Shown: positions 9,181 to 27,940 of the stretch, in pieces
How the letters are laid out: every line of letters begins with the position of its first letter
Numbering within the stretch: position 1 is the first letter of the stretch
NCBI GenBank assembly: GCA_964634205.1
Contig: CAZWKE010000003.1
Coordinates: forward strand, 9,268-73,267
Length of the DNA: 64,000 bases
From: an uncultured Spirochaetaceae bacterium
GTDB taxonomy: Bacteria; Spirochaetota; Spirochaetia; SZUA-6; RPPD01
Direction of reading: 5' to 3'
The notes under the pieces: model-generated
What the model was told of the DNA's origin: nothing
The model's input: only the letters and a program-made list of their open reading frames with translations
Database searches by the model: none
Translations under genes and position numbers: made by a program

Positions 9181-9234
9181 AGTTTTGATTCCTCTCTTTC
9201 ATTATCACTACGGCTACGATTTTACTTTATTAAT

Positions 9235-10566
9235 CTAATCCTTTTCTTTCCTATATGCAATAATCTTTCCTGATTTCACCTCTGAAAATCCCGGGTTTTT
9301 AAGAACCTCATTATCGCCGACAATCAGCAGGCCCCCGCCGGTAAGTTTTTCCTGAAACTGGGTAACAAGTTTCTCCTGCACGGTTTGATTATAAAAAGAA
9401 AGCACATCACGCGCAAGAATAATATCCAACTCGGGCAGGGGGGTCCCATGCAAAATATCATGGTATTCAAATAAAATCAGGTCCTTAACCGCTTTTACAA
9501 ACTGGTAGCCGTCGGTGGTGGCCTGCACATATTTTGCCTCTAAAAAATACTTCGGCACACCCTGGTTCGGGAGCACAAGATTTGGGGCCGCGGAAATATT
9601 CAGCAACTCATGATCGCTGGCCCATACCTTGATCCTCCGGTCCGGATATTTCAACGTTAAAATGCAGGCAATGGAGTAGGGATCATGCCCTTTTCCACAG
9701 TTCGGGCACCATACATCTATGGATCCTTTGGTCGGTGCCGGCACCAATTCTTCCATTTGCTTTCTGTAATCTTCCCCCCACAGCATGTTCGTATATACTG
9801 AATAATACTCCTCCAGAAAGCCTTCCGCGTCTTCCACACTCTCCAGCTGAACCGGTTTTTTCTGTGTTTTGCGCAGTTTTTTCCAGCCGTCCAGACGGCG
9901 CAGGCACCAGTCTCTGTTGATATCGGTAACATAGAAACTCTTAAAGGTGGCAAGCGTTTCAGTGATAAAATCAAATTCCAGTTCATCGCCTGATATTCGC
10001 GCTTTATTTACGGGCCCCTTTTCGGCGGCAGGTGCTTCCTGTATGATGCGCATACGCTCCAGATCATCCTCATCTACGCCGAAAACCCGTTCCACATCAA
10101 GAATGACATAGAGTTTTTTCTTTACCTCCACGACACCGCTGATATATTTCATATTGATATCCGCGAAAAGCGGATGCCGGGGTTGAATGGTAGACGAATC
10201 TATGCCCACGACGTTATCCACGCTGTCTACGATCATACCGATTACGGTTTCATCCAGACGCAGAATAAGGATATCCACCGCATCCTTTTTCCGCTCTTCC
10301 GAATATTCCAGATGAAACATCTTGCGTAAATTGATTATGCTGATGATCTCTCCCCGCAGATTATATACCCCTTCCACATAAGGAGAAGTATTGGGTACAA
10401 TGGTAAAATTCTTTGCCTTGGAGATCTCTTTTACCTTCATGATATCAATGCCGTAATCCCTGCCCGCAAGAGAGAAGGTCACCATTTTAAAGTCGATGTG
10501 AGCCTTTTTTTCCTGTTGTTCCTGCACATCTACCGCAGGTTGTGTCTGGTTTTCAACCGAACTCAT
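9235..10566 (-). CDS. cheW: CheW-CheR fusion protein (CheW3-like): coupling domain plus a CheR-type methyltransferase domain
   Basis: 443 aa. Residues ~25-165 are a CheW domain (VTFSLAGRDYGIDIMKVKEI...LRGEIISIINLRKMF). Residues ~190-443 carry CheR-like blocks; WCPNCGKGHDPYSIA aligns with the CheR SAM-binding loop W-S-A-G-C-S-T-G-E-E-P-Y-S. A CheR-like tail on CheW3 is known in spirochetes. Confidence 0.75.
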   Translation of the reverse strand: MSSVENQTQPAVDVQEQQEKKAHIDFKMVTFSLAGRDYGIDIMKVKEISKAKNFTIVPNTSPYVEGVYNLRGEIISIINLRKMFHLEYSEERKKDAVDILILRLDETVIGMIVDSVDNVVGIDSSTIQPRHPLFADINMKYISGVVEVKKKLYVILDVERVFGVDEDDLERMRIIQEAPAAEKGPVNKARISGDELEFDFITETLATFKSFYVTDINRDWCLRRLDGWKKLRKTQKKPVQLESVEDAEGFLEEYYSVYTNMLWGEDYRKQMEELVPAPTKGSIDVWCPNCGKGHDPYSIACILTLKYPDRRIKVWASDHELLNISAAPNLVLPNQGVPKYFLEAKYVQATTDGYQFVKAVKDLILFEYHDILHGTPLPELDIILARDVLSFYNQTVQEKLVTQFQEKLTGGGLLIVGDNEVLKNPGFSEVKSGKIIAYRKEKD

Positions 10567-10579
10567 ACCTTTATTGTCC

Positions 10580-12926: not shown

Positions 12927-13682
12927 TTGACACATTCACCGATACCGGTGCATTATGTAATTATCCATATGGTATCTATTGTCGTAGATAACTCTCCCGA
13001 AATCAGGAACTCCTTGTGCTATATTCTCCTCTCGTTCGGTATAAAGGGAATTCCGTGCGCCGACCGGGCGGAGGCCTTAACTATCATCCGTAAGGCTCCC
13101 GAAGAGATCTCATGCGCTGTCGTTGATATAGACCAAAAAGGAACCGGCGGGCTTGAACTGATAGAGGAATTAAAGCGTGAGGTAAAAACAAAAAAAATCA
13201 ACATTATCGTACATACAATACAGTCCGACAGGGAGGCGGTTGTCAAAATGCTGGAGTTGGGAGTAATAGGCTATCTGTTGAAACCGTATAAAGAGAGTGA
13301 AACTCCCGTCAAATTACATAAAATTTTACAACGGGTTGAAGGACAGGAGAAACGCCAACATATCCGCATAACCCCCGATCCGCAGGATTTACTGCGTGCT
13401 CACTTCCATATTCCGGGTTATCCGCACCTTGTTTCCGGCCTGATTGTTAACCTGAGCATGGGGGGCCTTGCCCTGGAACTGTATTCACCGGTTCCCGAAT
13501 CGGTGCTTGCTGAAAACACCCATATTGCTTCCTTACGATTTATCCTTTCCGCAAAAGAGTTGGCTCCCTCCGGTATCATAGTTGTCCGGAACAACAAATA
13601 TCTGGCAGTCAATTTCAGTGCCATAAACCAGGAGGATAGTCTTGTACTGGCCAGGTATATATTTAAAAGAATAGAGGTCTAA
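12927..13682 (+). CDS. REC-PilZ two-domain protein (CheY-like receiver fused to a c-di-GMP-binding PilZ domain); likely true start ATG 12969
   Basis: The track ORF begins at a TTG that is probably a -35 box (TTGACA at 12927). ATG at 12969 gives MVSIVVDNSPEIRN. REC residues are D in AVVDIDQ, T in IVHT, K in LLKPY. C-terminal PilZ motifs are RQHIRI (RxxxR) and NLSMGGLAL (D/NxSxGG). Confidence 0.7.
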   Translation: MTHSPIPVHYVIIHMVSIVVDNSPEIRNSLCYILLSFGIKGIPCADRAEALTIIRKAPEEISCAVVDIDQKGTGGLELIEELKREVKTKKINIIVHTIQSDREAVVKMLELGVIGYLLKPYKESETPVKLHKILQRVEGQEKRQHIRITPDPQDLLRAHFHIPGYPHLVSGLIVNLSMGGLALELYSPVPESVLAENTHIASLRFILSAKELAPSGIIVVRNNKYLAVNFSAINQEDSLVLARYIFKRIEV

Positions 13683-13719
13683 CAACCATTTCAGCATACG
13701 GTTGTTTTTTTATTTTTTT
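13683..13719 (+). terminator. Intrinsic terminator after the REC-PilZ gene
   Basis: CAACC-(12-nt loop)-GGTTG followed by TTTTTTTATTTTTTT. Confidence 0.45.
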
Positions 13720-13753
13720 GTGGATAGAATAGTATAAAAGGAGCATACCTTCC

Positions 13754-14665
13754 ATGAGATTTAAAACCGCGTTAGCAATAAGTTTTCTTTTGCTGTTCCT
13801 CATAGTATGCCAATCCGGGCTTTATGCCCTTGATGTGGGAATACTTTTCAGATTTGAAAATATGGACTTTGCCCCTGATCGAGAAGAATCCGACCATACC
13901 TTCGACGGACTGACCTTTCCCTGGGGAATTTCAATCTTTGCCAGCCACGAAATCGGTGATAACTTTTCCATTACCACCGGCTTTACACAAGATCCTATTC
14001 TCAGGAATATTTCAGCCACTATGGTGAGTTACCGGTACAGCTTTATCAGCATCGGATTGGGTCCGTACTTTGGATTTTTTAACTCCTGGGACCCGCTGAT
14101 CCGCTCGGGGATTAACGCGTCATTACGTATTGATTTTCCCGGAATAATCTTCGCGGAAATAAGGACGGGCAATACCATCGGGAGTCTGTCGAAAGAGGGA
14201 GACTATTCACAGGAAGAAACCTCTCTTCTTGCCGGTTTTCATGTAATGAATGCGATTTGTACCTTTGGGCTTTTGTCCAAAACCTTTACCCTGGTCAAAG
14301 ATTCGTCACAGGTCATAGACAGTCTGGACAAGTATTATTTCAGCACCGACCTCTTTCAAAAAAATGTTCCGTTCAGGGTCCTTCTCACCTTTGCCTACCA
14401 GACCATTTCCAAGACTTTTATTACACCCACAACCACCAGTTCACACACCCTAAGCTCACTTATTATCGGCACAGAGGTGGAAGTGGAACTGGTACGGTTT
14501 TTAAACCTCCTTGTTATAATCGACAGCAGTATTTATACCTTCGGCCAGGACGATCTACTGGGAGTAGAACCGGGAAAAGGTCTGGGGGGATTTCTCTTCA
14601 GCGCTCAAATCGGATTAAAATTAAAAATAGACCAGTTGGTGCAAAAACCTGAAATAGCCGAATAA
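13754..14665 (+). CDS. Hypothetical secreted protein, probable outer-membrane beta-barrel
   Basis: 303 aa. Signal peptide MRFKTALAISFLLLFLIVCQSGLYA. Beta-strand-like hydrophobic/polar alternation throughout. Good RBS AAAAGGAG. Confidence 0.5.
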   Translation: MRFKTALAISFLLLFLIVCQSGLYALDVGILFRFENMDFAPDREESDHTFDGLTFPWGISIFASHEIGDNFSITTGFTQDPILRNISATMVSYRYSFISIGLGPYFGFFNSWDPLIRSGINASLRIDFPGIIFAEIRTGNTIGSLSKEGDYSQEETSLLAGFHVMNAICTFGLLSKTFTLVKDSSQVIDSLDKYYFSTDLFQKNVPFRVLLTFAYQTISKTFITPTTTSSHTLSSLIIGTEVEVELVRFLNLLVIIDSSIYTFGQDDLLGVEPGKGLGGFLFSAQIGLKLKIDQLVQKPEIAE

Positions 14666-14668
14666 AAA

Positions 14669-14700
14669 AAGAGCTGTCCAAGATCTTTGGACAGCTCTTT
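14669..14700. terminator. Bidirectional terminator between convergent genes
   Basis: Perfect 11-bp inverted repeat AGAGCTGTCCA / TGGACAGCTCT, flanked by an A7 run upstream and CTTTTTGTT downstream. Confidence 0.7.
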
Positions 14701-14725
14701 TTGTTATATTAATCTGTTTTGTTTC

Positions 14726-15751
14726 TTATTGGTTTCCCTGAGTATCAGTATTATTACTCTGTTCTTTATACATTTTCTGTTTTTCCAGAAAACGCAGGAT
14801 GTGCAGATTGCCAAGCCGCCTGATCTCAGCCTTCCTTCTGGCCTCTTCACGCTGCTGCATAATCCCCCATACCTGCTCATCATTTATATCAAGATTGAAA
14901 TCCTGCCAGGCCAGGTCGTACTTGACCTTTACATCTTTTACATAGGTTACAAAATCACCGCCGGTCTGTTGCGCGTCACGATAGATAATAATCCCTATGA
15001 ATTTGATAAACGGCTCGCTCTGGGGATAAAGCGGGAATACTCTCAGATCCCTGTCCCGTACATCGCTGATATAATTGGGATTTTCCCATTTCAGCCGTTT
15101 CCATCCGGCATAATTCAAATATCCAAAAAATATGGTCCGTTCCTCACCGTTCTGGTCTTTATAAATCAACCCGATACCGTGTGGAAAGTTCCTGCCGCTG
15201 ACAACCATCTGCATCTCTTTGATGGTGCCGACGTTTTTTATAATACCTTTATTGTCGAATTTATCACCCTTGCCCTTATTCTCATCACCTGCCTTATCCA
15301 TATATGCCGGAATCTCAAAAGGCGGCTTTATGATTGCATATGAATTGAATGCCGGTTCCGGGAAATGAATTCGCACGGCCAGAACCGCTTTACTTTTCAT
15401 GTCCTCGCCCTCAAAATCAGCTGCATTGGCAGTGGTCTGCGCTTCTTTGGCATAGGAATAGATAATATTTTCACGATACTGTGAGGATGAAGCCAGGTCA
15501 ACCTCCCAGTTACCAAGCGCCAGAGAAGTTTTTAACTTGTCCAACTCATCCGCGGGTACTTCAGCCCCGGCCTGGCTGCGGTAATCAACCATGGTGGCCT
15601 GGTTTTCGGTTGGTGTGGTTTCACCTTGTTTGGTTACATCCGCTTTTAAATCATTGAAATCAATGAGTACCTGTGGTTCGGTTACCTGGGCCACAGCCTG
15701 TACACAAATCAACACAAAGAGAACACCGAGCACAAAACATATCTTTTTCAT
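14726..15751 (-). CDS. flaA: Flagellar filament outer-layer (sheath) protein FlaA-like
   Basis: 341 aa. Signal peptide MKKICFVLGVLFVLICVQAVAQ, then ...VLIDFNDLKAD. Size and the N-terminal LIDF motif match spirochete FlaA. Lies next to chemotaxis and flagellin-glycosylation-type genes. Confidence 0.55.
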   Translation of the reverse strand: MKKICFVLGVLFVLICVQAVAQVTEPQVLIDFNDLKADVTKQGETTPTENQATMVDYRSQAGAEVPADELDKLKTSLALGNWEVDLASSSQYRENIIYSYAKEAQTTANAADFEGEDMKSKAVLAVRIHFPEPAFNSYAIIKPPFEIPAYMDKAGDENKGKGDKFDNKGIIKNVGTIKEMQMVVSGRNFPHGIGLIYKDQNGEERTIFFGYLNYAGWKRLKWENPNYISDVRDRDLRVFPLYPQSEPFIKFIGIIIYRDAQQTGGDFVTYVKDVKVKYDLAWQDFNLDINDEQVWGIMQQREEARRKAEIRRLGNLHILRFLEKQKMYKEQSNNTDTQGNQ

Positions 15752-15788: not shown

Positions 15789-15816
15789 ATTATAATCACC
15801 CTAAATATTTTGTCAA
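15789..15816 (-). promoter_or_regulatory. Near-consensus sigma-70 promoter for the flaA-like gene
   Basis: Minus-strand TTGACA (15811..15816), 16 nt, TATAAT (15789..15794). Then about 30 nt to RBS AAAAGGAG and the ATG at 15751. Confidence 0.6.
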
Positions 15817-15855: not shown

Positions 15856-16497
15856 TTACTCTATAATATCCGCTGAAAAAACAATACCGTTCTCGAAATC
15901 CGCGCTCGATTTCAGACCGGCGCAGTATTCCAGCAACGGATTGTTTTTCAGTGCGGCCACGTATCTTCCCAAATCAGTAATATCGGTGATGATAAAATCC
16001 TTCAAGTATTTATAAAAATGCAGTCTGTTCGCTTCCGAGTAATTGGATACCTGGTGTCCCTCTATAAAAACAACCACCTTTTTTACATCAGGAAAATTAT
16101 AGAGTACACTGTCCGCAAATGCCTGAAGAATCTGTCGCGGCGAAATAAGTACCAGTTTGTTTATTTTAAAAATTCCGTTGGAAAAATTTACATAGAGAAT
16201 ATGATCATGAAGAATAGCGGATTTTATTTTTGTATCCACGGGTATTACCGGCAGGTTCTCGTACTTATAGGGGCCGGATACAATCTCATTCACCAACATC
16301 ATGACATTTGCCTCTTCACTTCCCAAATCAGGGAGAAAGCGCTCCTCCCCCACTACCTTGGTTTTTCCCACATGCGGGAAAAAGAGTACGCGACGCACCC
16401 AATTTTCCGAAAATACGAAAAAAAAGAGCGAAACCAGAAATACCACACCCAATAATCCCATAAATATAATAGGAACAAATTTAGAATATATTTTCAC
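15856..16497 (-). CDS. GerMN domain-containing protein (amidase-associated)
   Basis: 213 aa. N-terminal transmembrane helix. C-terminal region ILYVNFSNGIF...SPRQILQAFADSVLYNFPDVKKVVVFIEGHQV resembles the GerMN fold, which is commonly paired with cell-wall amidases. Confidence 0.45.
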   Translation of the reverse strand: MKIYSKFVPIIFMGLLGVVFLVSLFFFVFSENWVRRVLFFPHVGKTKVVGEERFLPDLGSEEANVMMLVNEIVSGPYKYENLPVIPVDTKIKSAILHDHILYVNFSNGIFKINKLVLISPRQILQAFADSVLYNFPDVKKVVVFIEGHQVSNYSEANRLHFYKYLKDFIITDITDLGRYVAALKNNPLLEYCAGLKSSADFENGIVFSADIIE

Positions 16498-16500
16498 GTT

Positions 16501-17529
16501 CTACTCCGTAAATGCTTTTGACTTCTCAAACTTTTCAATAAATGAGCCGACGCCATTATATATCGCCTGGGACAGTTTCTTCAAGTGGTTTTCGCTTGTT
16601 AATGCAAGGGCTTCTTCTTTGTTTGATACAAATCCTATTTCAATAAGAATAGAAGGCATCTTGGCCTTGCGGACGACAAACCATCGCCCTTCCTTCAACC
16701 CCCTGTTTTCACTGGATTTACCGATCACCGCATTCAGGGAATCAAGGATGTCTTTGGCCAGGATGACACTCTCCCATGTATATTCCTCCTCCCTCATGCT
16801 GTTTAAGATGGGAATGATATCCTCATGTTCGTCGCTATATGCCGTGGGTTCAATCAACTCACGTCTGTGTGTCGGCGTCAGATACCAGACCTCAAATCCA
16901 TTGGCCTGTCTGTTCGCGGATGAGTTGGCATGAATGGAGATATATATAATCGCCTCATTCTTTTTTGTCGGTATATTATTGGCAATTTCCGGACGCTTTT
17001 CCAGGGAGATAAACTCGTCACGGTCGCGCGTAAGCTTGACAATCTTATTAGGATATTTATTGGTAAGCATTTTGTAAAGAAGCAATGATATGCGCAATAC
17101 CACGTCTTTTTCCGCTACCGTTACCTTTTTCCCGTTTACCGTATATGAATATGAGGCCCCGGGATCCTTGCCCCCGTGACCCGCATCGATCACGATGGCC
17201 GCAACCCGGTAATACGGAGTCTCCGACGGTTTATTAAAAAAATCCTTGATTATGGCGGCCGTCTCGTCCGGGATCAGTACCGCGCCCTTTTTCCTGATAA
17301 TTCCCGCCGTATTCACCTTTTTCATATAATTCAAAAGGACCCACGGCGCGCCGATTTTAAAAACCACCCTGTCCGTGTTTTTTATCAGCACACCGGTATC
17401 GAGCATATAATCCCACTCCAGAGAGACTTTTAATTCCTTTATAAAAGATTGTAACTCAATATACTCCGCCCGGAGGGTGAATAAGGAAAGTAAAAATAAA
17501 ATAACAACCAGGCTAATTCGCTTTTTCAT
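16501..17529 (-). CDS. N-acetylmuramoyl-L-alanine amidase (Amidase_3 family, AmiC-like)
   Basis: 342 aa. Signal peptide. Zinc-binding active-site motif AAIVIDAGHGGKDPGA. Also ISIHAN. Confidence 0.85.
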   Translation of the reverse strand: MKKRISLVVILFLLSLFTLRAEYIELQSFIKELKVSLEWDYMLDTGVLIKNTDRVVFKIGAPWVLLNYMKKVNTAGIIRKKGAVLIPDETAAIIKDFFNKPSETPYYRVAAIVIDAGHGGKDPGASYSYTVNGKKVTVAEKDVVLRISLLLYKMLTNKYPNKIVKLTRDRDEFISLEKRPEIANNIPTKKNEAIIYISIHANSSANRQANGFEVWYLTPTHRRELIEPTAYSDEHEDIIPILNSMREEEYTWESVILAKDILDSLNAVIGKSSENRGLKEGRWFVVRKAKMPSILIEIGFVSNKEEALALTSENHLKKLSQAIYNGVGSFIEKFEKSKAFTE

Positions 17530-19123
17530 CCGCCGCTCCCTTTCTCCGCTTCTTTAGAAGAGTATCGATAACATAAACCCCACCCTGGATGCCGCCTCTG
17601 CAAAAGGCATCCCAGAAAAGCCTTCCCAACACAATCATATTATCGGTAACAGCGGCGGTAAGGTGTACCCCGGTATACCGGGTAACCATTTCGAGGGCCT
17701 TGCCGATGGGCACGCCGTGCCAGTCATGCGCATGCTCTCTTTCGACAGCCGGCAGGGCAAGAATCGCCATCTTCTCCGGTACGCGGCCGGGCATATCGTT
17801 CCACAGCGGCCGCATGCGGGTCAAAGCCTCCCGGTTTGTCCGGTCTTCGATTATAAAGCAGGCTACACCCGGCGTCCCGTTTCCCAAAAGAAACTCATCG
17901 GTCTCAGGCCTGTCCGCCTTAAGGCGCAGAAAAATCCTCCGTAAAGCGTCTTGTGCCGCGGCAACCGCACGCCGCCGGTTGCCCGCCTTGGAAATGATAT
18001 TTCCGCATTTTTCCACGTTATTCCTGGGAAAGCACACCTTGCTGCCCGGTGCAACCCGTAAAAACAGGTCCATTACTCCCGGCAGGTTTCCGGCCTCGTC
18101 TGTACCGTAAATCGCCCGTATCTCACCGGGTATGGATATAAAGGCCCGTTCAGCGGAAACACAATGGTAGTTTGGTTCGAGAGAAAGGGGGGGCAGGCCC
18201 ACCGCGATGCGCATGGCTGCTTCCGTTACCCGCACACCATAGGCGTAGGGAAATGTCCAACCCGACATGTATCCGCCGGAAAGCCGTGCCGCGATCTCTC
18301 CCACCACCGGCCCTTGCCCCGAGAGTTTGATATCTCCCTTTGCCGCCCCGTTTGTAATACCCAATGCTTTTATGCCCTGACAAAATACCTTTTCTACAGC
18401 GGAAACGGTTGCCCGGTTATAGGCGGTGGGCATGGTATGTCCCATCTCTACAAAATACGGTGAAAAGCGGATATCCCTGTCCGCCACCCCGCATACGGTT
18501 ATTTCCCCTTTATAGACGATGGCATCAAGACTGAATTCAGGTCCCTCCACATACTCCTCGATTATTACCTTGTGAGATCGGGAATACATAAATCCCCGGG
18601 ACACCGCCTGCCGCAACTGATCGGGTGACTCGGCTTTCACCACTCCCCGTGCGCCCATATTATCCGCCGGTTTCACCACAACCGGGAAGCGGAGCTCGCC
18701 CTCCAGTTCCGCAAGCCGGGTTTCCTCGGTGATACACCGGAAATCCGGGCTGGGGACATGATTTGCTTTAAACACCTCCCGCATTCTTACCTTGTCGGTC
18801 GCGTCCAGGGCAACCTCATAAGGAATACCCGGCAGACCAAGGCGCTCGGCGGCATACGCCACACTGGTTGAAAAATCCGTACCCGCGGTAAATACCCCGT
18901 CCAATCCGTTTTCCCGGGCATAACGTTTTAGTACCCCTGTTATCTCTTCCGTGTGCCTGAGGTCTATATGCTCAAAAAAATCCGCATACTCCCTCCCGGG
19001 CACCTTGCTGCTGCCGTCAATCAAAATAACACGCCAGCCCAGTTCTCGTGCAATGCGCAGGGAGGGCAGCTGCATAATACCGCCCCCCAAAATGGCAATC
19101 GTTTTTTCATCGGCACCGCTCAC
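17513..19123 (-). CDS. ATP-grasp domain enzyme with a ~150-aa C-terminal extension
   Basis: 536 aa. Glycine-rich N-terminus TIAILGGGIMQL. Central ATP-grasp region (PVVVKPADNMGARGV ... IEEYVEGPEFSLDAIV). Overlaps the neighbours at both ends, indicating an operon. Confidence 0.65.
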   Translation of the reverse strand: MSGADEKTIAILGGGIMQLPSLRIARELGWRVILIDGSSKVPGREYADFFEHIDLRHTEEITGVLKRYARENGLDGVFTAGTDFSTSVAYAAERLGLPGIPYEVALDATDKVRMREVFKANHVPSPDFRCITEETRLAELEGELRFPVVVKPADNMGARGVVKAESPDQLRQAVSRGFMYSRSHKVIIEEYVEGPEFSLDAIVYKGEITVCGVADRDIRFSPYFVEMGHTMPTAYNRATVSAVEKVFCQGIKALGITNGAAKGDIKLSGQGPVVGEIAARLSGGYMSGWTFPYAYGVRVTEAAMRIAVGLPPLSLEPNYHCVSAERAFISIPGEIRAIYGTDEAGNLPGVMDLFLRVAPGSKVCFPRNNVEKCGNIISKAGNRRRAVAAAQDALRRIFLRLKADRPETDEFLLGNGTPGVACFIIEDRTNREALTRMRPLWNDMPGRVPEKMAILALPAVEREHAHDWHGVPIGKALEMVTRYTGVHLTAAVTDNMIVLGRLFWDAFCRGGIQGGVYVIDTLLKKRRKGAADEKAN

Positions 19124-20934
19124 CCGGCGTCCCCCCTTTTCACCGCATATACCTCAAAAGTATCTCCGAGTCCGAACACTCGGCTTACCGCCGAAAATAG
19201 TTTCGCACACCATTTTCCCGGCAGGCCGGGGAGCGCTTTTCCCTTGAAAAATCTTTCCCCGTGATGCCCGGTAATATATATTTTTTTTACCGTGAAACCG
19301 AATCCCGCAAGCTGTTTTTTGATTTTTGCCGGGTGCCAGACGGTATAGTGATCCGGCGGACTCTTTTCCAGAAACCGACGCATGTTCTTCCGGGCCGAGA
19401 TCCCCGCCGCCGAAGGCGTGGAAAAAGCCAGGATTCCACCGGGCTTTAAAAGCAGGCTGATATGCTTCAGTATGGCAAACGGATTTTGAAAATGCTCCAG
19501 TACAAACCACATACTCACTCCATCGAAAAGGGCGCGGTTTTTCTTGACATACATATCACCGTCTTTCCCAAAATCCAACTCTTCACAGGAAATTCCGAGT
19601 GTCTCCCTGACATACCGTACGGCGGCGCCGCTGATATCCAGACCACGCGCCGCTATATTCCGGGCGGCCGCCTCCTTGAGAAACGGCCCGTAGGCGCAAC
19701 CGATATCCAATAAGCGCGGGTGTTCCTTATTTTCCCTCCATAATCTTTTAATAACACGCAGCCGCCTCCTGCCCTGTTGCCGGATACATGCAAAGTCCTG
19801 CAGATAGGTCCTGCCGTACTGTTTCCGATACTCTTTGAAAAAGTAGTCCCGGTTGTAGTACTGCTTTTTTTCCAGGAAAAAAAGTCCGTAGATCATGCCG
19901 CAGTGCGAACAAGCGAAATATGTCTTGGCCGGAAAGCGGGCCGACACCCTGTTGCCCCGATGATGACAAAGCGGGCAGACGGCTGAACCGCTGAATTCCC
20001 GGCCCTGCAGATGTGTGATTATGGCCGGCCGCGTGCGAGGGTCCCGCGGCGGGTAGCGAAGCAACAGCCGCTTAAAACGCTGTTCATTCTTTAACAGGGC
20101 CCGAAGGCGTTTCAGATTCGGTTTTCGTATGCCGATCTCGGGAAATCCCGCCTCCCGACTGAGCCTCCGGTGATACGGCGTCGGATTAAAACTAATCACC
20201 GGAACGCCAAGAGCCAGTGCCTCATAACAGGTAAGGCCGAAATGCGTAAATACAAGATCGTACTCCCGGATAAGACCTTGCAGATCACCCCTGTTTTTAT
20301 ACACGGTGACACCCTGCGGCCATTTGGTGTGTTTAAACAAAGGCCCCTGGACCACGGCTATTTCCGCGGGCCTGAACACCCCCTGTTCAAGGAGTTCCCG
20401 CAGCAGTACCGGCGATAATTGACACGGGTCTTCTCCGCCGAAACTCAACAACACCCGTTTGAAGGGATGGTGCATACTCCGCCGGGCGGCGGTGTGTAAC
20501 CGGGGTTCATAGGGGATGACAATATTGGGAGTGCTTCTCTTCGCTGTTCCGGGCAGCGTATCTATCAGGTAGGGGAACAGGTCCCGGGCGGCACCACCCT
20601 CATCCAGGCCGACAACCGGTGCTTGTTCCCTATACATTGAAAACAACGACCGCGGGGTGCGCCTGCCGTCCAGTACAATGCACTTTAATTTTGCGGCGGG
20701 CGGCAACTGTTTTACCAGGTACCGGTGTTCGGCCTGCGAAACGGGCAGTACGCTCAGGGATTTATCCGGGGGAAGCAAAAGCAGGGCCCCGGTGCCGAAC
20801 AGACGCACATGGTCCATACAACGTTTGAAATGTCCCATTCCTTCTCCCTGCCCGACCCGTGGGACAAAAAGGACCCGCCTCATTCGGCTTGCGGTACTGC
20901 TGCCTGCCAAAGCTCTGTGTGCGTTTTCAGCCAT
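19120..20934 (-). CDS. Fusion protein: PseG-like UDP-sugar hydrolase (GT28-type) + zinc ribbon + class I SAM-dependent methyltransferase
   Basis: 604 aa. N-terminal VLFVPRVGQGEGMGHFKRC matches the PseG GxGHxxR motif. Middle segment CPLCHHRGN...CSHCG is a 4-Cys ribbon. C-terminal LLDIGCAYGPFLKEAAARNIAARGLDIS is SAM-methyltransferase motif I, followed by ILAFSTP. Confidence 0.6.
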   Translation of the reverse strand: MAENAHRALAGSSTASRMRRVLFVPRVGQGEGMGHFKRCMDHVRLFGTGALLLLPPDKSLSVLPVSQAEHRYLVKQLPPAAKLKCIVLDGRRTPRSLFSMYREQAPVVGLDEGGAARDLFPYLIDTLPGTAKRSTPNIVIPYEPRLHTAARRSMHHPFKRVLLSFGGEDPCQLSPVLLRELLEQGVFRPAEIAVVQGPLFKHTKWPQGVTVYKNRGDLQGLIREYDLVFTHFGLTCYEALALGVPVISFNPTPYHRRLSREAGFPEIGIRKPNLKRLRALLKNEQRFKRLLLRYPPRDPRTRPAIITHLQGREFSGSAVCPLCHHRGNRVSARFPAKTYFACSHCGMIYGLFFLEKKQYYNRDYFFKEYRKQYGRTYLQDFACIRQQGRRRLRVIKRLWRENKEHPRLLDIGCAYGPFLKEAAARNIAARGLDISGAAVRYVRETLGISCEELDFGKDGDMYVKKNRALFDGVSMWFVLEHFQNPFAILKHISLLLKPGGILAFSTPSAAGISARKNMRRFLEKSPPDHYTVWHPAKIKKQLAGFGFTVKKIYITGHHGERFFKGKALPGLPGKWCAKLFSAVSRVFGLGDTFEVYAVKRGDAG

Positions 20935-21599
20935 TGTACAAGTTCTACAGTTTCTATGGGTTTGTGTCTATAGAGTGCCGTATACACAGCATGGATTATT
21001 TTGAAATCTGCGGCCGTATCCAACGTTACCCGCGCCCGGGGAAGCCGGCACTCCGGCGGACAAGGGGGTTCATGTACCGAGAACTCAGTTTTATGCTTCA
21101 GAATATAAGGGGTAACATGTTCATGATCATATGGATCCGTTGTTTTTTCACGGGCGGCAAACAAGGCCCGGGCCTCTACCACCTCAACCCCCGTTCCCAG
21201 TGGCGCGCCTTCAAACCTGCTGAAATCCGTACTGTGTTGCTGATGGTACTCCAGGTTGCGCCGGGTCAGCTCCGCCGAAACAAGGGGATTGTCTCCGGTT
21301 GCCCTGACAATCCGGGTTACGCCGAAATGCCCGGCCGCCCGGCAGTATCGTTCCAGGACATCAAGCGAAGGCCCGGCAAACAGGTGAAACTGCCATTTCT
21401 CCGCGTACCGTTTCAGGGCCGAGGCGCTCTCTGCATCGGTAAGCAGGGCATGCACATCAACCGCCACCCGGCCAAGGGCCTGCATAGCATGCTCGATGAC
21501 CGTGAGTCCAGCCAGTTCCAGCAGGGCTTTCCCGGGCAGGCGTTTTGATTTCAATCGTACCTGTAAAAATATACCACTTTTCATTCCGGATCTTCCCAT
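20880..21599 (-). CDS. CMP-nonulosonic acid cytidylyltransferase (NeuA/PseF/KdsB family)
   Basis: 239 aa. N-terminal GIFLQVRLKSKRLPGKALLELAGLTVIEH fits the cytidylyltransferase P-loop pattern (ARxxSxRLPxK). Confidence 0.75.
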   Translation of the reverse strand: MGRSGMKSGIFLQVRLKSKRLPGKALLELAGLTVIEHAMQALGRVAVDVHALLTDAESASALKRYAEKWQFHLFAGPSLDVLERYCRAAGHFGVTRIVRATGDNPLVSAELTRRNLEYHQQHSTDFSRFEGAPLGTGVEVVEARALFAAREKTTDPYDHEHVTPYILKHKTEFSVHEPPCPPECRLPRARVTLDTAADFKIIHAVYTALYRHKPIETVELVQWLKTHTELWQAAVPQAE

Positions 21600-22546
21600 A
21601 ACTCGATCAGACTCTTTGCGTCCCTTCTGAATCTGTATTTATTCAGGATTACCCACTTTCGTACGTTGAGGAACTCTTTCAGGGAGGTAATAATCCCGGT
21701 ATTCGATTTTATCATGTAGCGGAAAAAATGCCTGAACGGCAGCACCCCGCGGTCGCTTCTGAAATCCACACACAGGTTTTTCAGGTAAAACAGTTTATAG
21801 CTTTCATCGGGGGTGTTGTCCTCAAAGGACAACTCATAATTGTAATGAAACAGCAGGGAAGTATTACAGACAATATTTTCTCCCCATAGAAAACACCTGA
21901 AACCAAAATCGGCCTTCTGCCAGAAAGGGGTGGTGATATTCCCGTCGAATCCGCCGCACAAACGGTATTTTTCCTTATTATAAATACCGCAGTAATCGAA
22001 GGCGAACAGGCTTTTCATACCGTCGCGCAGGGGGTTCCACGGGATGATTTTAAAGGCCTTCTTTTCATACCCCGGTGTCTGGATACTGGGGATTGTATCA
22101 CCTTTTTTATTTTTCAGAATGGGAACCGTACATAGTGCGTTTTGGTGCAGGATTTTTTCCAGTACCCGTGCGGCAAGCGAGCTTTGGGATATCTTCATAT
22201 CGTTCCAGATGATAAACACCAAGCGGGACATGGCCTCTTCTATTCCGATATTCACTTTTTCCCCGGCGGTGCATTTTTCATGCAGCAAGAGAAACCGGAC
22301 ATTGGGATAGCGGCGGGAGAGGCTCTCCACATCATACGCAATATCCGGCCCCTCAATGAAGATAACCTCAAGGGACTCTTTCCGGGGCAGATCGTTGAAT
22401 ACATCATGCTGGAACAGCCTGCCCCCCCGGTTTAAGATGACGATCGAGACGGGAAAAAGGTATTTGCTTACGCGGGGTTTCGGCGCTCCGCCCATTACCG
22501 TATAGGATATTTGCGGGCGTTTAAAAATTGTAGGTGTAGTACTCAT
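21581..22546 (-). CDS. Glycosyltransferase-like protein (degenerate GT-A/GT2 fold)
   Basis: 321 aa. FPVSIVILNRGG...QHDVFNDL resembles a GT2 N-terminus. No clear DXD motif. In an operon with the sugar-nucleotide enzymes. Confidence 0.35.
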   Translation of the reverse strand: MSTTPTIFKRPQISYTVMGGAPKPRVSKYLFPVSIVILNRGGRLFQHDVFNDLPRKESLEVIFIEGPDIAYDVESLSRRYPNVRFLLLHEKCTAGEKVNIGIEEAMSRLVFIIWNDMKISQSSLAARVLEKILHQNALCTVPILKNKKGDTIPSIQTPGYEKKAFKIIPWNPLRDGMKSLFAFDYCGIYNKEKYRLCGGFDGNITTPFWQKADFGFRCFLWGENIVCNTSLLFHYNYELSFEDNTPDESYKLFYLKNLCVDFRSDRGVLPFRHFFRYMIKSNTGIITSLKEFLNVRKWVILNKYRFRRDAKSLIELWEDPE

Positions 22547-24014
22547 CGCATTCTTTACAGATATCGGGATATTCTTCCTTTAAATGCCGGAGATAAAAAT
22601 CGTTGCCCCGGTCCCAGATAACGGCCGGGTCATCCTGTAAAAGATTGCCCAGAACATGCTGCTTGTTGATGTCCTCCCTGCAGAGGCTGACACTGCCGTC
22701 CAGAAAAACCGCAATGTCCCGTTTAATATGCCAGCAGGGAAAACGTTTCAGGGGTGAAAGGTCCGTTACCCTGTACTGCGGCAGAAAACCGGAAAAATAA
22801 TCATACTTTTGAATAATAATATTTTCCGTGGTTTGTTTCCATTGCTTATAGAATTTTTCAAGCTCATCCTCATTCTGCTGCATACGCACGGCCTGGACAA
22901 ATACATTTCGACCGAAGGTCTCAAGCAGTATTTTGGTATTTTCCATGGCCTCGGCAAAACCCTGCCCACGCAAGGTGTTGTAACACGCTTCACTGATCGC
23001 ATCCAGCGAAACAATCCAGCGGCAGCGATCACGTACATTGCCGCTTAATGACTGCAGGGCCTTCGCGTCCCATCCCAGGGCGGATGTCTCAATTACCAGT
23101 TTGAAGGACGGTATCTCGCATACTTTTTCGATTAGCTCATATGCCTTGCTGTGCAGCGAATGCTCGCCCCATAACGAAAAGCCGATGACCGCGTCCTCAC
23201 AGAATCCCCGTATTTTCTCCAGTATTTTTTCAAAATCCTCCGGGGCCATTTCACCCTTTTTCCCCAGCATATCGGGTCTGAATTTGGGGTACGGACAGTA
23301 TGAGCATTGCTGCGCGCAGCCCTCCACGGTCTGAACCAGAAAATAAACGGGCAGCGTGCGTAATATTTCCTTGTGTTCCTGTAAGGCCTTCAGTATTTCC
23401 TGTTCCGAAAACGCCCCGTACTCCGCCAGCCGTTTTAATAAAAAGAAATTCCTTCTGCAGTCCGCGGACAGGCCGGCACGCAGCAGACGCAGGTCAACGG
23501 GAGATATCTCGGTCTCCAGGTCAAATGAGTTGATGTCCTTCTTTATCAGCTCAAACAGGCTGTTCCGGTCCGGTACCGTGATTTCATCTTCACCCAGCAG
23601 GTTCAGCAAGGGCGTTAGAATATAGGGTTTCAGGATTTCCGGGGTAAGTCCGTAGGGATACCCGTCGGCAAAGGTGTAATCCGCAAAATAGGTCTTATGA
23701 TTCGCGTACATGCGTTTTGTGATCTCACTGTTCAAAAACATACAGTCCGCGTAGAAATAAAAAATATTATCAAACCCCTCGGCCTTTTCTTTTATTCGGC
23801 GCAGCATTTCTCCCGTGGTCCAATGCTCATCCTGCAGGGACTCATACTGTTTTAATTCCCTGCAGGGTGAAGAAAGCAGAACCAGGGTCTTTTCGACCTC
23901 CGGGAGGCTCCCGATGTATTCTTTCACAAAATCAAGGGGGGTCTTCCCGCTCCGCACGTTTTCAAGGGCATAGGGAGAGAGATTAATTCCGTTTACTATG
24001 GCTATATTTTTCAT
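22521..24014 (-). CDS. Radical SAM / SPASM-domain enzyme with a ~220-aa N-terminal extra domain
   Basis: 497 aa. 4Fe-4S cluster motif CAQQCSYC (CxxxCxxC) at about residue 225. C-terminal Cys-rich auxiliary-cluster region CWHIKRD...SLCRED...CKECDEY. The N-terminal 220 aa precede the radical SAM core. Confidence 0.7.
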   Translation of the reverse strand: MKNIAIVNGINLSPYALENVRSGKTPLDFVKEYIGSLPEVEKTLVLLSSPCRELKQYESLQDEHWTTGEMLRRIKEKAEGFDNIFYFYADCMFLNSEITKRMYANHKTYFADYTFADGYPYGLTPEILKPYILTPLLNLLGEDEITVPDRNSLFELIKKDINSFDLETEISPVDLRLLRAGLSADCRRNFFLLKRLAEYGAFSEQEILKALQEHKEILRTLPVYFLVQTVEGCAQQCSYCPYPKFRPDMLGKKGEMAPEDFEKILEKIRGFCEDAVIGFSLWGEHSLHSKAYELIEKVCEIPSFKLVIETSALGWDAKALQSLSGNVRDRCRWIVSLDAISEACYNTLRGQGFAEAMENTKILLETFGRNVFVQAVRMQQNEDELEKFYKQWKQTTENIIIQKYDYFSGFLPQYRVTDLSPLKRFPCWHIKRDIAVFLDGSVSLCREDINKQHVLGNLLQDDPAVIWDRGNDFYLRHLKEEYPDICKECDEYYTYNF

Positions 24015-24073: not shown

Positions 24074-27000
24074 TTATTTCTCCGGAATGAGTTCCAGAAT
24101 AAGTTCAACCTCACCGCGCGAGAGTTTGGTGGCCCTGGCAATCTCCTGAACCGACCAGCCCTGATGGGCGAGTTTCACTACCGTCTGCCGTTTATCACTT
24201 GAAGGGGCCCCACGGTCCTTTTTGGTCTGGGCCACCTCTTCCTTGATCAGACTTTCCAAAAGTCGCAGCTGTTCCTGGGCCTGGGTATTTACCTGTTCCA
24301 GCCTTGTCTCGGCCCGGGCCAGCCATTCCCTGGCGATATTCAGTTTGTCCATCCGTGCCTCAAGCTCCAGAATCAGGTGATCAATACCTTCCATTTTATC
24401 GACCACGGCGTCGGTCTTTTCCTTGTTGGCGCTGATAAGCTCAATCTCCGCTTTCAGTTCCTTTATCAGGGAGGGTATCCCCTTCATTTCCTTCTGCATT
24501 TCACCTAATGATTTGTCAAGACCGGTGAGCTTTTGAAAATTCTTATCCACTCCCTGGGTCGTGCTGTCCAGTACCTTCTTTTTCTGTTCCAGGCGGGCAA
24601 AACGGGTATCTACCTCTTTTTCCAGATCTTCGAGTGTTCTCATTTTCAGCTCCAGCTCCTGGACCGCATCGTAATTTGTAGTAATATTCACAATCTTGGC
24701 GTCTATTTCATGTGAGATGGAAATAAGGCGTTTAAAATCGGTTTCCATGCTGTTGATACGCTTTTTCTCGGTCACAAATTCCCTGACCTTGGCGGACATA
24801 TCATCCACGAGCTTTCTAGTGGTGACAAACTCTTTGTTGATGGCGTCCACGTCCTTTTTATACGCCGATATCTTGACGAGCTCCTTTTTCATGGAGTCGA
24901 TATCACTCTCAAGGTTGATTTTAAGTGTATCCGCCCGTTCAAATATTTTTGTCTGGGCCACAAAATTCTTCTGCTGTTTTTCTATCTCGCTTAATCCCTG
25001 CCCCAGACCGGAGGCCTTTTCCACCAGTCTATCAAGCTCATCCTTTAGGTGCGCCCTTTCCTTGGTGGTCGCGTCTATCAGATCGTTCTTCTGTTCCGCA
25101 AAATTCTTTTCCAGCGTCGTAAAGGTGGTGGAAAACAGGGTTTCCAACTCGGTTTGACGCTCCACAAAACTATGCTGCAGTGAGTTCAAAGCCGAATTAA
25201 ACGTTTCTTCCAATTCCTGCCGGCGTTCATCAACATCCTGTTTCAGGGTATTAATTCTTGCCGACGAATCCTCTGTCAGTCCGGAAAGCTTTTCAGATAT
25301 ATCCTGCTCCGAATCCTGGTATTTCTGCAGTATTTCCTCGTGCCACTGGCGGGCTTCCTCCGTAGTGCCGGAGAAGTAAGCGGAAAGCTTTTCCCGGGAA
25401 TTCTTGAAATTCTCCTCAAGCTGCTTAATATTTTGCTGTACGTCGATTTTCCCGTCTTCCAGCGCCTTGAACATCGAGGCAATATACCCGTTAATCTCAG
25501 CCTGGGTGCTGTCCAGTTTGGTATCGATAGCCTCGCGCAGCTCCGCTTCCTTTTCCTGCATGGCCCGGCCGGCCGCGCTTTCGATGCTGCGGATATTTTC
25601 CTGTTTGATGGTTTCGATCTTGGTGGAGACCTCTTCCTGGAACTCTTCTATTACCTTTCGCAGTGCGTCACTGCGCTCCCTGAAATCATTAAAGAAATCA
25701 TCCTCAAGTACGCTTAATTTCCCTGATACATTTTCGTACGCCCTGGTTTTCAAGGTATTTATTTCAGCTTCGATATTCTCAATTTCTTCCCGGTAATTCT
25801 CCAGCTCCGCGGCCGCCCTGGATTTCTCCGCACTGCGTTCATCCGCCAAAAGCTTGTTAAAATCGCTGAAATCATGCCTGATCTTCTCCGTGATCCCATC
25901 CATATAATCACGCAGGGATTTTTCCATGGATTCAATATCCACATTACAGTCTTCAAGTTTTTTAAATTTAAAGGAAATCTCCTCTTCATAGGTTCCCAGC
26001 CGCTCTTCTACGCCTTTTGTATACTCATCCATTTCCGCGGCCGCCTGCTCCCGGGCAAGCCTGGTCTGATGAAAATCCTCTTCGTATTTTTGTATGCTCC
26101 GAGCGATTTCGGTCTTCCTGTGCTCGAAGGCCTGTACCATGGATTCTATATTCTCGTTTATTTCAGTCCGCGTCACGTCTATTTTGGAGTCGATAAACTC
26201 ACGCAGCTCATGTTCCTTTTCTTCCAAAGTATCCGCCGCCATACTTTCGATCGTCGTATTATTCTCCTGTTTAATCTGTTCAATCCGCGTCAACACCTCT
26301 TCCTGGAACTTATCCAGGCTGGTTTGGACGGCCAGGCTTCGTTCCTTAAAATCGGCAAAGAAATCATCTTCCAGGATTTGCAGCTTTTCGGATACATTTT
26401 CATATGCCGTGGTTTTCAGCGCCTTTACCTCGGAATCGATACCCTCTATCTCGTTTCGTATCCGGGAAAGCTCCCGGTCGGCCTTGGCGGTTTCCGCCGA
26501 GCGTTCTTCTTCCAGACGGTTTCCAAAGTCTGAAAAATCACTTTTGATCTTATCGCTGACACCCGCCATATACGCGCGCAGTGATTTTTCAAGCTCTTCA
26601 ATATCTACATTGCAATCTTTTAGTCTCTGGAACTTATAGGCAAGCTCTTCATCATAGGTTTCCAGCCGTTGTTCCACGTTTTTGGTAAAATCTTCCATTT
26701 CCAGCGATACACTTTCCTGGGTATCCCTGGCCCGGTTTAAGAAATCGGTCATACCGGCGCTGACCTCATTTTCCAGATCACGCAGCTTGGCGGAAATCTG
26801 TCGTTTCAGGTCCTTCATCTGTTTGTCCAGTTCCACGTGCCAAACGTTTGCGTCGGAACGCAGTACCCCGAACATCTCCCCGATCTCTTTCTTCTTGGTA
26901 TCAAGGTCGGTATTCACCCGCTTGAAGTATTCCTCGATTTCATAAGCCTGCTCCCTGGCCTTTTTATCGATAGACTCTTGCAGGTTATGGAACACCTCAT

Positions 27001-27940
27001 CATTAAAGGTCTCTCCCCGTACCGCCGCCTTTTCCAGCTGCTCATGGAACATCTTTTCGATTCGGGTGTACTGCTCCTTAAAATCCTCGATCTTTGCGGC
27101 ATACTCCGCATCAAGAGCCTGTGAAGTATCGTGAACCGTCTCCAGCATGGTTCGCAGCTCCAGGGTGATCTTTTCCTGTTCCTCCTGCGCACCGCTGATA
27201 ACCGCGCCGGTTTCGGAAGAAAGCTCGCTGATCCCCTGTTTTCTACGCTTGATGATCTCTTCATCCAGGCCGGACAGGAGTTCCCGATAGGCCTTTTCAG
27301 CGGTTTTCACCACCTCTGATCTGCGTTCCTCAAGCTTTTTCACGTACCCCGCCACACCGGTGACATTCTGTTCGATTATATGCAGATTTTGTTCAAGTTC
27401 CTCAATGCTGTCGCGATGTGTATCAAGCAGTTTTTTACGGATCTTATCCAGTTCAAGCCTGTTTTTCTCCGTAGATTTAGTCAGCGCGTTCTCCAGGGAC
27501 GTTTCCAGTTTGGTGATACGGTGCGAGACATCTTTTACCTGTGAACCTACCCGGTCGATAAAAACCGATTCATCCTTGATACGCGAAAGATTCTCATCAA
27601 CCCTGCCGGACATGGCGACAAGCTCATTTAACGTACCCGCGTAATTGTCTACGGTGGCTTTCATATTTTTGAAATCACCCTCTTTGGCCTTTAGGGCTTC
27701 TTCAAAAGTGAGAATCCGCTTTAAAACCTCTCTGCTCTTTTTCAGATTAAGATCCAGATCGACCGCGATATCATTAATCTCAACGGTTTTTTCCTTGATA
27801 AACACGGATATTTCTTCTTTCAGTTTGTCCGAAAAGCGTTTTACCTTTTCCAGACTTCTGTTGCGCTTATCAAGCGTTCTAAAGAGGATTACAATAATAA
27901 TAACTACCAAAAATGTAGGCAGGCTGAAAGTGTAGTCCAT
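24074..27940 (-). CDS. Giant membrane-anchored coiled-coil protein with a C-terminal helix-turn-helix
   Basis: 1288 aa. N-terminal transmembrane helix FSLPTFLVVIIIVILF. About 1150 aa of charged heptad-like sequence (E/K/L-rich). C-terminus LAHQGWSVQEIARATKLSRGEVELILEL is HTH-like. Very strong RBS GGGAGGGGAG. Confidence 0.55.
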   Translation of the reverse strand: MDYTFSLPTFLVVIIIVILFRTLDKRNRSLEKVKRFSDKLKEEISVFIKEKTVEINDIAVDLDLNLKKSREVLKRILTFEEALKAKEGDFKNMKATVDNYAGTLNELVAMSGRVDENLSRIKDESVFIDRVGSQVKDVSHRITKLETSLENALTKSTEKNRLELDKIRKKLLDTHRDSIEELEQNLHIIEQNVTGVAGYVKKLEERRSEVVKTAEKAYRELLSGLDEEIIKRRKQGISELSSETGAVISGAQEEQEKITLELRTMLETVHDTSQALDAEYAAKIEDFKEQYTRIEKMFHEQLEKAAVRGETFNDEVFHNLQESIDKKAREQAYEIEEYFKRVNTDLDTKKKEIGEMFGVLRSDANVWHVELDKQMKDLKRQISAKLRDLENEVSAGMTDFLNRARDTQESVSLEMEDFTKNVEQRLETYDEELAYKFQRLKDCNVDIEELEKSLRAYMAGVSDKIKSDFSDFGNRLEEERSAETAKADRELSRIRNEIEGIDSEVKALKTTAYENVSEKLQILEDDFFADFKERSLAVQTSLDKFQEEVLTRIEQIKQENNTTIESMAADTLEEKEHELREFIDSKIDVTRTEINENIESMVQAFEHRKTEIARSIQKYEEDFHQTRLAREQAAAEMDEYTKGVEERLGTYEEEISFKFKKLEDCNVDIESMEKSLRDYMDGITEKIRHDFSDFNKLLADERSAEKSRAAAELENYREEIENIEAEINTLKTRAYENVSGKLSVLEDDFFNDFRERSDALRKVIEEFQEEVSTKIETIKQENIRSIESAAGRAMQEKEAELREAIDTKLDSTQAEINGYIASMFKALEDGKIDVQQNIKQLEENFKNSREKLSAYFSGTTEEARQWHEEILQKYQDSEQDISEKLSGLTEDSSARINTLKQDVDERRQELEETFNSALNSLQHSFVERQTELETLFSTTFTTLEKNFAEQKNDLIDATTKERAHLKDELDRLVEKASGLGQGLSEIEKQQKNFVAQTKIFERADTLKINLESDIDSMKKELVKISAYKKDVDAINKEFVTTRKLVDDMSAKVREFVTEKKRINSMETDFKRLISISHEIDAKIVNITTNYDAVQELELKMRTLEDLEKEVDTRFARLEQKKKVLDSTTQGVDKNFQKLTGLDKSLGEMQKEMKGIPSLIKELKAEIELISANKEKTDAVVDKMEGIDHLILELEARMDKLNIAREWLARAETRLEQVNTQAQEQLRLLESLIKEEVAQTKKDRGAPSSDKRQTVVKLAHQGWSVQEIARATKLSRGEVELILELIPEK
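25370..26701 (-). repeat. Diverged in-frame tandem duplication (2 x ~666 bp, 2 x ~222 aa) inside the giant gene
   Basis: Protein residues 414-635 and 636-857 align colinearly (EMEDFTKNVEQRLETYDEELAYKFQRLKDCNVDIEELEKSLRAYM versus EMDEYTKGVEERLGTYEEEISFKFKKLEDCNVDIESMEKSLRDYM, roughly 50% identity). DNA identity is only partial, so the duplication is ancient. Confidence 0.8.

Follow-up and report, generated by a model that had tools for sequence, protein, structure and literature searches.

A spirochete radical SAM protein with a degenerate cytidylyltransferase domain opens a conserved, flaA-linked gene block that may tailor flagellin glycans

A 64-kb stretch of DNA from an uncultured member of the Spirochaetaceae (the window, whose positions are used throughout) encodes a radical S-adenosylmethionine (SAM) protein of the family TIGR04321, the "spiro-SPASM protein" of NCBIfam. 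The gene (22521..24014, − strand) is an uninterrupted ATG-to-stop open reading frame (ORF) of 497 amino acids plus stop; the original prediction had placed it at exactly these coordinates, with no strand given. The protein has a three-domain architecture, consisting of an N-terminal domain of cytidylyltransferase fold, a radical SAM core and a twitch-type tail, and it opens a conserved block of eight genes ending in flaA. On balance we favour the reading that it is a BtrN-like enzyme that tailors or activates a nonulosonic acid for the flagellin O-glycan, with its N-terminal domain serving to bind or dock. The original prediction, of an extended radical SAM enzyme among sugar-nucleotide genes that may act on a sugar or glycan rather than a peptide, is confirmed as an observation and partly supported as an interpretation; it had missed both the named family and the specific flaA and chemotaxis neighbourhood of spirochetes. 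To that prediction we add the domain assignment, the reclassification of the tail as twitch, the identification of BtrN as the closest relative that has been characterised and an operon of eight genes linked to flaA.

The protein matches TIGR04321 end to end, with residues 5–497 aligned to positions 3–510 of the 510-position model and a whole-protein score of 542.9 bits (E 7e-163; curated cut-off 250). This match is far beyond chance and membership of the family is certain. The gene is thus not a new kind, because it already belongs to a named family; it is a typical TIGR04321 orthologue, and nothing sets the protein of the window apart from its relatives. A word-indexed homologue search returned more than 1600 of these, and the 120 best, which were examined, are all about 495–540 amino acids long, the named ones being annotated as "spiro-SPASM protein" of Spirochaetales, Spirochaetia or Spirochaeta. 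An exhaustive HMMER search across 1.84 billion cluster representatives gave matches at E ≤ 1e-30 to at least 374 of these 50%-identity clusters, nearly all of them full length (480–550 amino acids). Scanning 185,579 species genomes yielded 494 loci, and the best 80 of these (spiro-SPASM 42–72% identical), on which the synteny counts below are based, come from Spirochaetota without exception, as does every named homologue. The cluster names of 20 distant family representatives are all "spiro-SPASM protein" from metagenome-assembled genomes of Spirochaetaceae or Spirochaeta, with no cultured genus, and the identical protein sequence occurs in metagenome contigs only. We found no mention of TIGR04321 or spiro-SPASM in the literature searched, nor any described function, substrate or publication.

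The radical SAM core spans residues 222–400 (22815..23351, − strand) and is delimited by Pfam Radical_SAM PF04055 (residues 229–390, 49.1 bits; cut-off 29.5) together with fold matches to SuiB, BtrN, anSME and MoaA, PqqE also being listed. The AlphaFold2 model of the whole protein was built on 26 homologues and has a mean predicted local distance difference test score (pLDDT) of 89.6 and a predicted template modelling score (pTM) of 0.88. Read from the sequence, the CxxxCxxC motif is CAQQCSYC (23295..23318, − strand). It lies at residues 233–240, where the original prediction had given about residue 225. C233, C237 and C240 are invariant in 26 of 26 homologues and are the predicted ligands of the SAM-cleaving [4Fe-4S] cluster.

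One rival identity is that of a cofactor maturase, of the MoaA, PqqE or tungsten-cofactor type, that happens to lie beside glycan genes. MoaA and PqqE do appear among the fold matches, and sub-threshold NCBIfam matches are seen to W_rSAM_matur (42.5 bits), PqqE (21 bits) and MoaA (20.4 bits). These scores of 20–43 bits fall far under the family cut-offs of 284–381 bits, however, no cofactor-pathway genes lie nearby, and the eight-gene glycan and flagellar synteny described below persists down to 31% identity. On scores and context we reject this identity, which is close to excluded.

The C-terminal domain (residues 424–497; 22524..22745, − strand), delimited from Cys conservation and alignment with BtrN, corresponds to the Cys-rich, SPASM-like tail of the original prediction. 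A Cys-bearing tail of SPASM type is indeed present: Pfam SPASM PF13186 matches residues 427–490 with 28.3 bits (cut-off 21.5), and TIGR04085 remains under its threshold at 17.8 bits (cut-off 27). The full SPASM motif has seven Cys arranged as CX9-15GX4C-gap-CX2CX5CX3C-gap-C. In the spiro-SPASM tail there are only four, C427, C445, C486 and C489, and the seven-Cys, two-cluster pattern is not found. The four are invariant in all 26 aligned homologues and, with the three of the CX3CX2C motif, make up the seven invariant Cys of the whole protein. Their spacing is C427-X13-G-X3-C445 and C486-X2-C489; the CX5CX3C...C part of the full motif is missing because the protein stops eight residues past C489. 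A full SPASM domain carries two auxiliary clusters, whereas twitch is a truncated SPASM domain with one (PMC9012708). Despite the family name, then, the Cys pattern identifies the tail as a twitch-type domain, with a single predicted auxiliary [4Fe-4S] cluster held, like that of BtrN, by four Cys.

The closest characterised relative by both sequence and fold is BtrN, whose substrate is sugar-like. When the family profile was compared with every PDB sequence, BtrN was found at E 2.6e-13 and the sole other match was SkfB at E 1.4e-3. The profile alignment lays residues 434–490 on the auxiliary-cluster region of BtrN, which pairs C445, C486 and C489 with the Cys that BtrN has in LPCFED and DLCKNC. 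In this alignment VLLDGTVPLCRED...LGN...IW is placed on BtrN VTVLGNVLPCFED...MGNI...IW, and DLCKxCDE on DLCKNCNN, so that the Cys of the BtrN auxiliary cluster match those of spiro-SPASM. Taken together, the kinship with BtrN in sequence and fold, the glycan-type neighbours and the absence of a precursor gene make a sugar or glycan the best-supported substrate, as the original prediction had proposed, and the target of the enzyme is probably a sugar and not a peptide.

The N-terminal extension of about 220 residues is real and conserved across the family. It had been described as carrying no motif that could be placed, which proved wrong: residues 1–218 (23361..24014, − strand) form a cytidylyltransferase fold, of the nucleotidyltransferase (GT-A-like) type, that lacks the basic nucleotide-binding loop. 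The relationship is to gene 3 of the same block, an active-type cytidylyltransferase of 239 amino acids, which itself matches positions 85–227 of the spiro-SPASM model. A profile–profile comparison of 76 N-terminal domains with 59 gene 3 orthologues aligned 201 columns with 97.2% probability (E 2.9e-11); Pfam PF02348, the CTP_transf_3 family to which gene 3 belongs, fails to detect the N-terminal domain. The loop that binds cytidine triphosphate (CTP) in active enzymes, Q-x-R-x-x-S-x-R-L-P-x-K, reads N-A-I-x-L-S-x-Y-A in the N-terminal domain. Whereas Q13, R15, S18, R20 and K24 are conserved at 98% in the 59 gene 3 orthologues, the 76 N-terminal domains have N, A/G, L, S/T, Y and A at the loop positions, with no conserved Arg or Lys. 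Elsewhere in the domain no variation is seen at D90, H106, Y113, F115, D117, P120 and G122, while conservation of E126 is 97%.

The N-terminal domain therefore appears, from these alignments, to be a degenerate and diverged paralogue of the neighbouring CTP_transf_3 enzyme. With the basic nucleotide-triphosphate loop lost, its role probably lies in binding or docking and not in catalysis; judged by motif, it probably no longer catalyses cytidylyl transfer. It may bind a sugar linked to cytidine monophosphate (CMP) or to another nucleotide, or may dock on the neighbouring cytidylyltransferase. In either role it would occupy the place held by the peptide-recognition domain in maturases of RiPPs, the peptides that ribosomes synthesize and that are modified after translation.

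No gene for a peptide substrate adjoins spiro-SPASM. The 3′ end of spiro-SPASM overlaps the next gene by 26 nt and the gap to the gene upstream is 59 nt; all ORFs of 20–60 amino acids up to 2 kb away are contained in long genes, leaving no free-standing precursor ORF, in agreement with the original prediction. No conserved small gene lies next to spiro-SPASM in the best 80 loci, and no PqqD match appears in the protein at E ≤ 1 in Pfam, the domain that would mark a RiPP recognition element (RRE). With no room for a precursor gene and no PqqD or RRE match, this is by these tests not a RiPP system: neither the adjacent precursor nor the N-terminal RRE that characterise a RiPP radical SAM maturase is present. 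A wider version of the same idea is that the enzyme matures one of the block's own proteins, such as FlaA prior to export (compare the action of anSME on sulfatases), or a precursor peptide encoded at a distance. Such a maturase is suggested by the synteny and by the resemblance in fold to SuiB and anSME. Against it stand, besides the missing precursor ORF and RRE, an N-terminal domain with a nucleotidyltransferase fold, four auxiliary Cys instead of seven, and a search of solved structures in which BtrN is the only strong relative by sequence and SkfB reaches merely E 1.4e-3. Indirectly, a near-atomic cryo-EM model of FlaA from Treponema denticola reportedly has no unusual modifications, although the glycans of FlaB were seen (PMC13439194). 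We regard maturation of a protein or peptide as rather improbable.

The genes that follow spiro-SPASM on the − strand favour a role in glycan synthesis. Gene 2 (21581..22546) encodes a spirochete-only protein of 321 amino acids for which a fold search indicates a GT-A glycosyltransferase fold resembling protein O-glycosyltransferases; its long start, which produces the 26-nt overlap with the spiro-SPASM stop, is backed by a conserved N terminus. Its profile has no match among PDB sequences, and against Pfam only weak Glycos_transf_2 matches are seen (7 of 29 members, best E 0.0015). Gene 3 (20880..21599) is the CTP_transf_3 cytidylyltransferase (PF02348, 85 bits) with an intact nucleotide loop, and its best solved relative is PDB 6oew (E 2.9e-18). 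By sequence it is of the CMP-ulosonic-acid synthetase type.

Gene 4 (19120..20934) encodes a fusion of 604 amino acids in which a PseG-like or GT28-like GT-B domain is joined, through a Cys4 ribbon, to a class I SAM methyltransferase. The first domain matches TIGR03590 (PseG) below threshold (E 7.8e-6, 25.7 bits; cut-off 153.6) and has weak profile matches to the PseG structure 3hbm (E 0.033) and to a GT28-type enzyme (E 0.0018); its GxGxGH..R motif is invariant. The methyltransferase domain (Methyltransf_23, 85 bits) is nearest to UbiG and a glucose O-methyltransferase. Between the two, at residues ~330–365, lies a zinc-ribbon-like segment with four Cys, CPLCHH...CSHCG. Gene 5 (17513..19123) is an ATP-grasp ligase of the L-amino-acid-ligase type (ATP-grasp_4, LAL_C2), an amide-bond former that matches the L-amino acid ligase PDB 3vot (E 2.2e-23) as well as BacD.

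The block continues with gene 6 (16501..17529), an N-acetylmuramoyl-L-alanine amidase of the Amidase_3 family (PF01520, 158.8 bits), gene 7 (15856..16497), a GerMN-domain protein (PF10646, 35.2 bits), and gene 8 (14726..15751), FlaA, the sheath protein of the periplasmic flagellar filament (PF04620, 219.6 bits). The original prediction had taken all of the neighbours for sugar-nucleotide enzymes, a description that suits the four downstream genes and does not suit the amidase, the GerMN protein, FlaA or the coiled-coil protein upstream.

The order and strand of the eight genes are kept in the best 80 loci wherever the contig reaches: genes 2 to 8 are present in 79, 76, 69, 65, 60, 55 and 58 loci, respectively, and the 65 loci with gene 5 are every locus long enough to contain it. 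Conservation extends to a far more diverged locus (L085), in which spiro-SPASM is 31% identical and the same eight genes are followed directly by cheA and cheW-cheR. As a separate observation, the Amidase_3, GerMN and FlaA genes are adjacent in constant order in 58–60 of the 80 loci.

The presence of the amidase and GerMN genes as conserved members of a co-directional block raises the alternative of a block devoted to the cell wall. In that case the target of the radical SAM enzyme would be a precursor of peptidoglycan or the envelope, such as a muramyl or ulosonic acid unit linked to a nucleotide; an amino acid would be attached by the ATP-grasp ligase, and the amidase and GerMN proteins would remodel the product. 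The kinship of gene 5 with D-Ala-D-Ala and L-amino-acid ligases agrees with this picture, and a small-molecule or sugar substrate would still fit the BtrN-like fold. Other members of the block agree less well with it: the PseG-like and O-methyltransferase-like domains, together with a GT-A fold like that of protein O-glycosyltransferases, better suit the decoration of a glycan, flaA, the che genes and a Maf-like gene lie close by, and CTP_transf_3 enzymes convert ulosonic acids to CMP-sugars, which to our knowledge are not peptidoglycan precursors. A function in the cell wall thus seems to us unlikely.

Tailoring or activation of a nonulosonic acid for flagellin, the reading we favour, draws on the flagellin glycan of T. 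denticola. There FlaB bears a nonulosonic acid N-acylated with a 2-methoxy-4,5,6-trihydroxyhexanoyl group, and this glycan is essential for filament assembly (PMC13439194, PMC9481697); the products of TDE1713-1716 of the same organism are left unstated (PMC9481697). Synthesis of this acyl group calls for CMP activation together with an amide ligase and an O-methyltransferase, the very activities that are encoded beside spiro-SPASM. The masses agree as well, given that Pse5Ac7Ac (316.13) less an acetyl group (42.01) plus C7H12O5 (176.07) gives 450.19, the reported value being 450.2 Da. In the literature searched, which does not cover the primary glycan study, we found no account of how the flagellin glycan of T. 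denticola is tailored. None of NeuB/PseI, PseB, PseC and PseH was seen in the ORFs annotated across the 64 kb; the genome may carry them outside the window.

A mechanism can be outlined by analogy with BtrN. The reduced radical SAM cluster would cleave SAM, and the resulting 5′-deoxyadenosyl radical would take a hydrogen from a carbinol carbon of the sugar, or of the side chain of a sugar acid, in an intermediate of the pathway. The substrate radical would then be oxidised to a ketone via the auxiliary cluster, in a dehydrogenation of the BtrN type; in BtrN itself the second electron goes to the auxiliary cluster (PMC9012708). Alternatively, the radical might end in dehydration or epimerisation, as in other sugar-modifying radical SAM enzymes. 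The likeliest pathway would be that of a pseudaminic-type nonulosonic acid that is tailored or activated for the O-glycan of FlaB. The 3-deoxy/2-oxy pattern of the acyl chain is one that a radical diol dehydratase or dehydrogenase could make, although this is speculation. A bolder and distinctly tentative proposal, which we consider possible but would not expect to hold in full, is that spiro-SPASM would be the first enzyme of the radical SAM class in a nonulosonic-acid pathway, in which the dead cytidylyltransferase domain, a copy of its partner in the operon, would hold the CMP-sugar or dock on the active cytidylyltransferase while the BtrN-like core oxidises or dehydrates a carbinol carbon.

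The flanks of the block indicate where it begins and ends. Upstream of spiro-SPASM in the window lies the gene of a SpiroCoCo coiled-coil protein of 1288 amino acids (24074..27940, − strand; NF047514/NF047515). Across the 80 loci, this position is taken by a divergent XseA-like gene in about 30, by a ProB-like gene in 10 and by SpiroCoCo in only the 4 closest. Because the upstream genes differ between loci, spiro-SPASM can be taken to open the conserved block, and because the adjacency of SpiroCoCo is limited to the four closest loci, we reject it as a functional partner. The SpiroCoCo protein itself shows an apparent internal duplication of a long segment, EMEDFTKNVEQRLETYDEELAYKFQRLKDCNVDIEELEKSLR... 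recurring as EMDEYTKGVEERLGTYEEEISFKFKKLEDCNVDIESMEKSLR..., and its C terminus has matches to DUF6115 and DUF2802.

At the other end of the block, a consensus scan found a perfect sigma-70 sequence, TTGACA-16 nt-TATAAT (12/12), at 15789..15816 (− strand), within the 104 nt that separate the GerMN gene from flaA. By this consensus flaA probably has a promoter of its own, and it may be transcribed alone in addition to being read together with the block upstream. The flaA of T. denticola is reportedly co-transcribed with four upstream ORFs. Directly after flaA, a hairpin with a 17-bp perfect stem flanked by runs of A and T (14666..14702) sits between the convergent stops of flaA and of a + strand gene (13754-14665); from its sequence it is likely a bidirectional intrinsic terminator that closes the block.

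Past two genes on the opposite strand beyond flaA, the window contains a chemotaxis operon encoding CheA, a CheW-CheR fusion and CheX (8716-12853, − strand), and in the diverged locus (at its positions 9155-11586) cheA comes directly after flaA. Since che genes stand beside flaA in both, the glycan block, flaA and che form one conserved neighbourhood. The two opposite-strand genes between flaA and cheA (12927-14665, + strand) encode a receiver-domain protein and a protein of 303 amino acids without a family, and they recur in 22–29 of the 80 loci. About 11 kb from flaA, a + strand gene (2249-3922) encodes a protein of 557 amino acids that matches PF01973 (DUF115/MptE-like, Maf family) with 110 bits and, weakly, "flagellin modification protein PseD". 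By sequence similarity this Maf/DUF115-type protein is a candidate flagellin nonulosonic-acid glycosyltransferase, and its presence in the window suggests that the organism glycosylates its own flagellins. Unrelated to spiro-SPASM, the window also encodes a UPF0182 family membrane protein of 950 amino acids (52269-55121, + strand; 810 bits).

Spirochete motility depends on periplasmic flagella, and at flaA the spiro-SPASM block forms an uncharacterised operon, phylum-wide and fixed in gene order. Its predicted activities include those that tailoring needs, namely CMP activation, O-methylation, amide ligation and glycosyl transfer, to which one radical enzyme is added. If the proposed role is correct, the block would be a concrete gene set for how the flagellin glycan is tailored, CMP-ulosonic acids or their acyl chains would be a new substrate class for twitch radical SAM chemistry, and a pseudo-enzyme domain would have been reused for substrate recognition in place of an RRE. 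Should the link to flagellin fail, a gain in annotation would remain, in that "SPASM" in the family name should not be taken to mean "peptide maturase" and an annotation is now available for the N-terminal domain.

Finally, spiro-SPASM can be set against the systems it most resembles. Other members of TIGR04321 share the length, three-part architecture and restriction to spirochetes of the window protein; the family name implies a SPASM domain, whereas its members carry the four-Cys, one-cluster twitch version. BtrN (PDB 4M7T/4M7S) is a twitch radical SAM enzyme, the 2-deoxy-scyllo-inosamine dehydrogenase of butirosin biosynthesis. It has about 250 amino acids, no N-terminal domain and a place in an aminoglycoside cluster of a Firmicute, compared with the 497 amino acids of spiro-SPASM and its location in a flaA-linked glycan block with no aminocyclitol genes nearby. 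With an identity of 20–24% and this different context, BtrN is a remote homologue of spiro-SPASM and not an orthologue.

The peptide-modifying enzymes differ in other respects. SuiB, anSME, CteB and PqqE have at least seven auxiliary Cys and two auxiliary clusters, SkfB being of the twitch type instead, and most SPASM maturases combine an N-terminal RRE with an adjacent precursor or target, both of which spiro-SPASM lacks. AprD4, NeoN, HygY and GenK are radical SAM enzymes that act on sugars or nucleotides; we know of no such enzyme from a nonulosonic-acid or flagellin-glycan pathway. DesII, BlsE, viperin, MoaA and SpeY, all among the fold matches of spiro-SPASM, show that on sugar carbons this scaffold supports oxidation, dehydration, deamination, decarboxylation and epimerisation. 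For both sets of enzymes, sequence kinship with spiro-SPASM is at the superfamily level only, and none has a nucleotidyltransferase-like domain fused to it. The CTP_transf_3 enzymes, including the Leptospira structure 6OEW and the synthetases of CMP-Kdo, CMP-NeuAc and CMP-Pse, keep the basic loop intact, whereas in spiro-SPASM this loop is replaced and the domain, unlike those cytidylyltransferases, is fused to a radical SAM enzyme.

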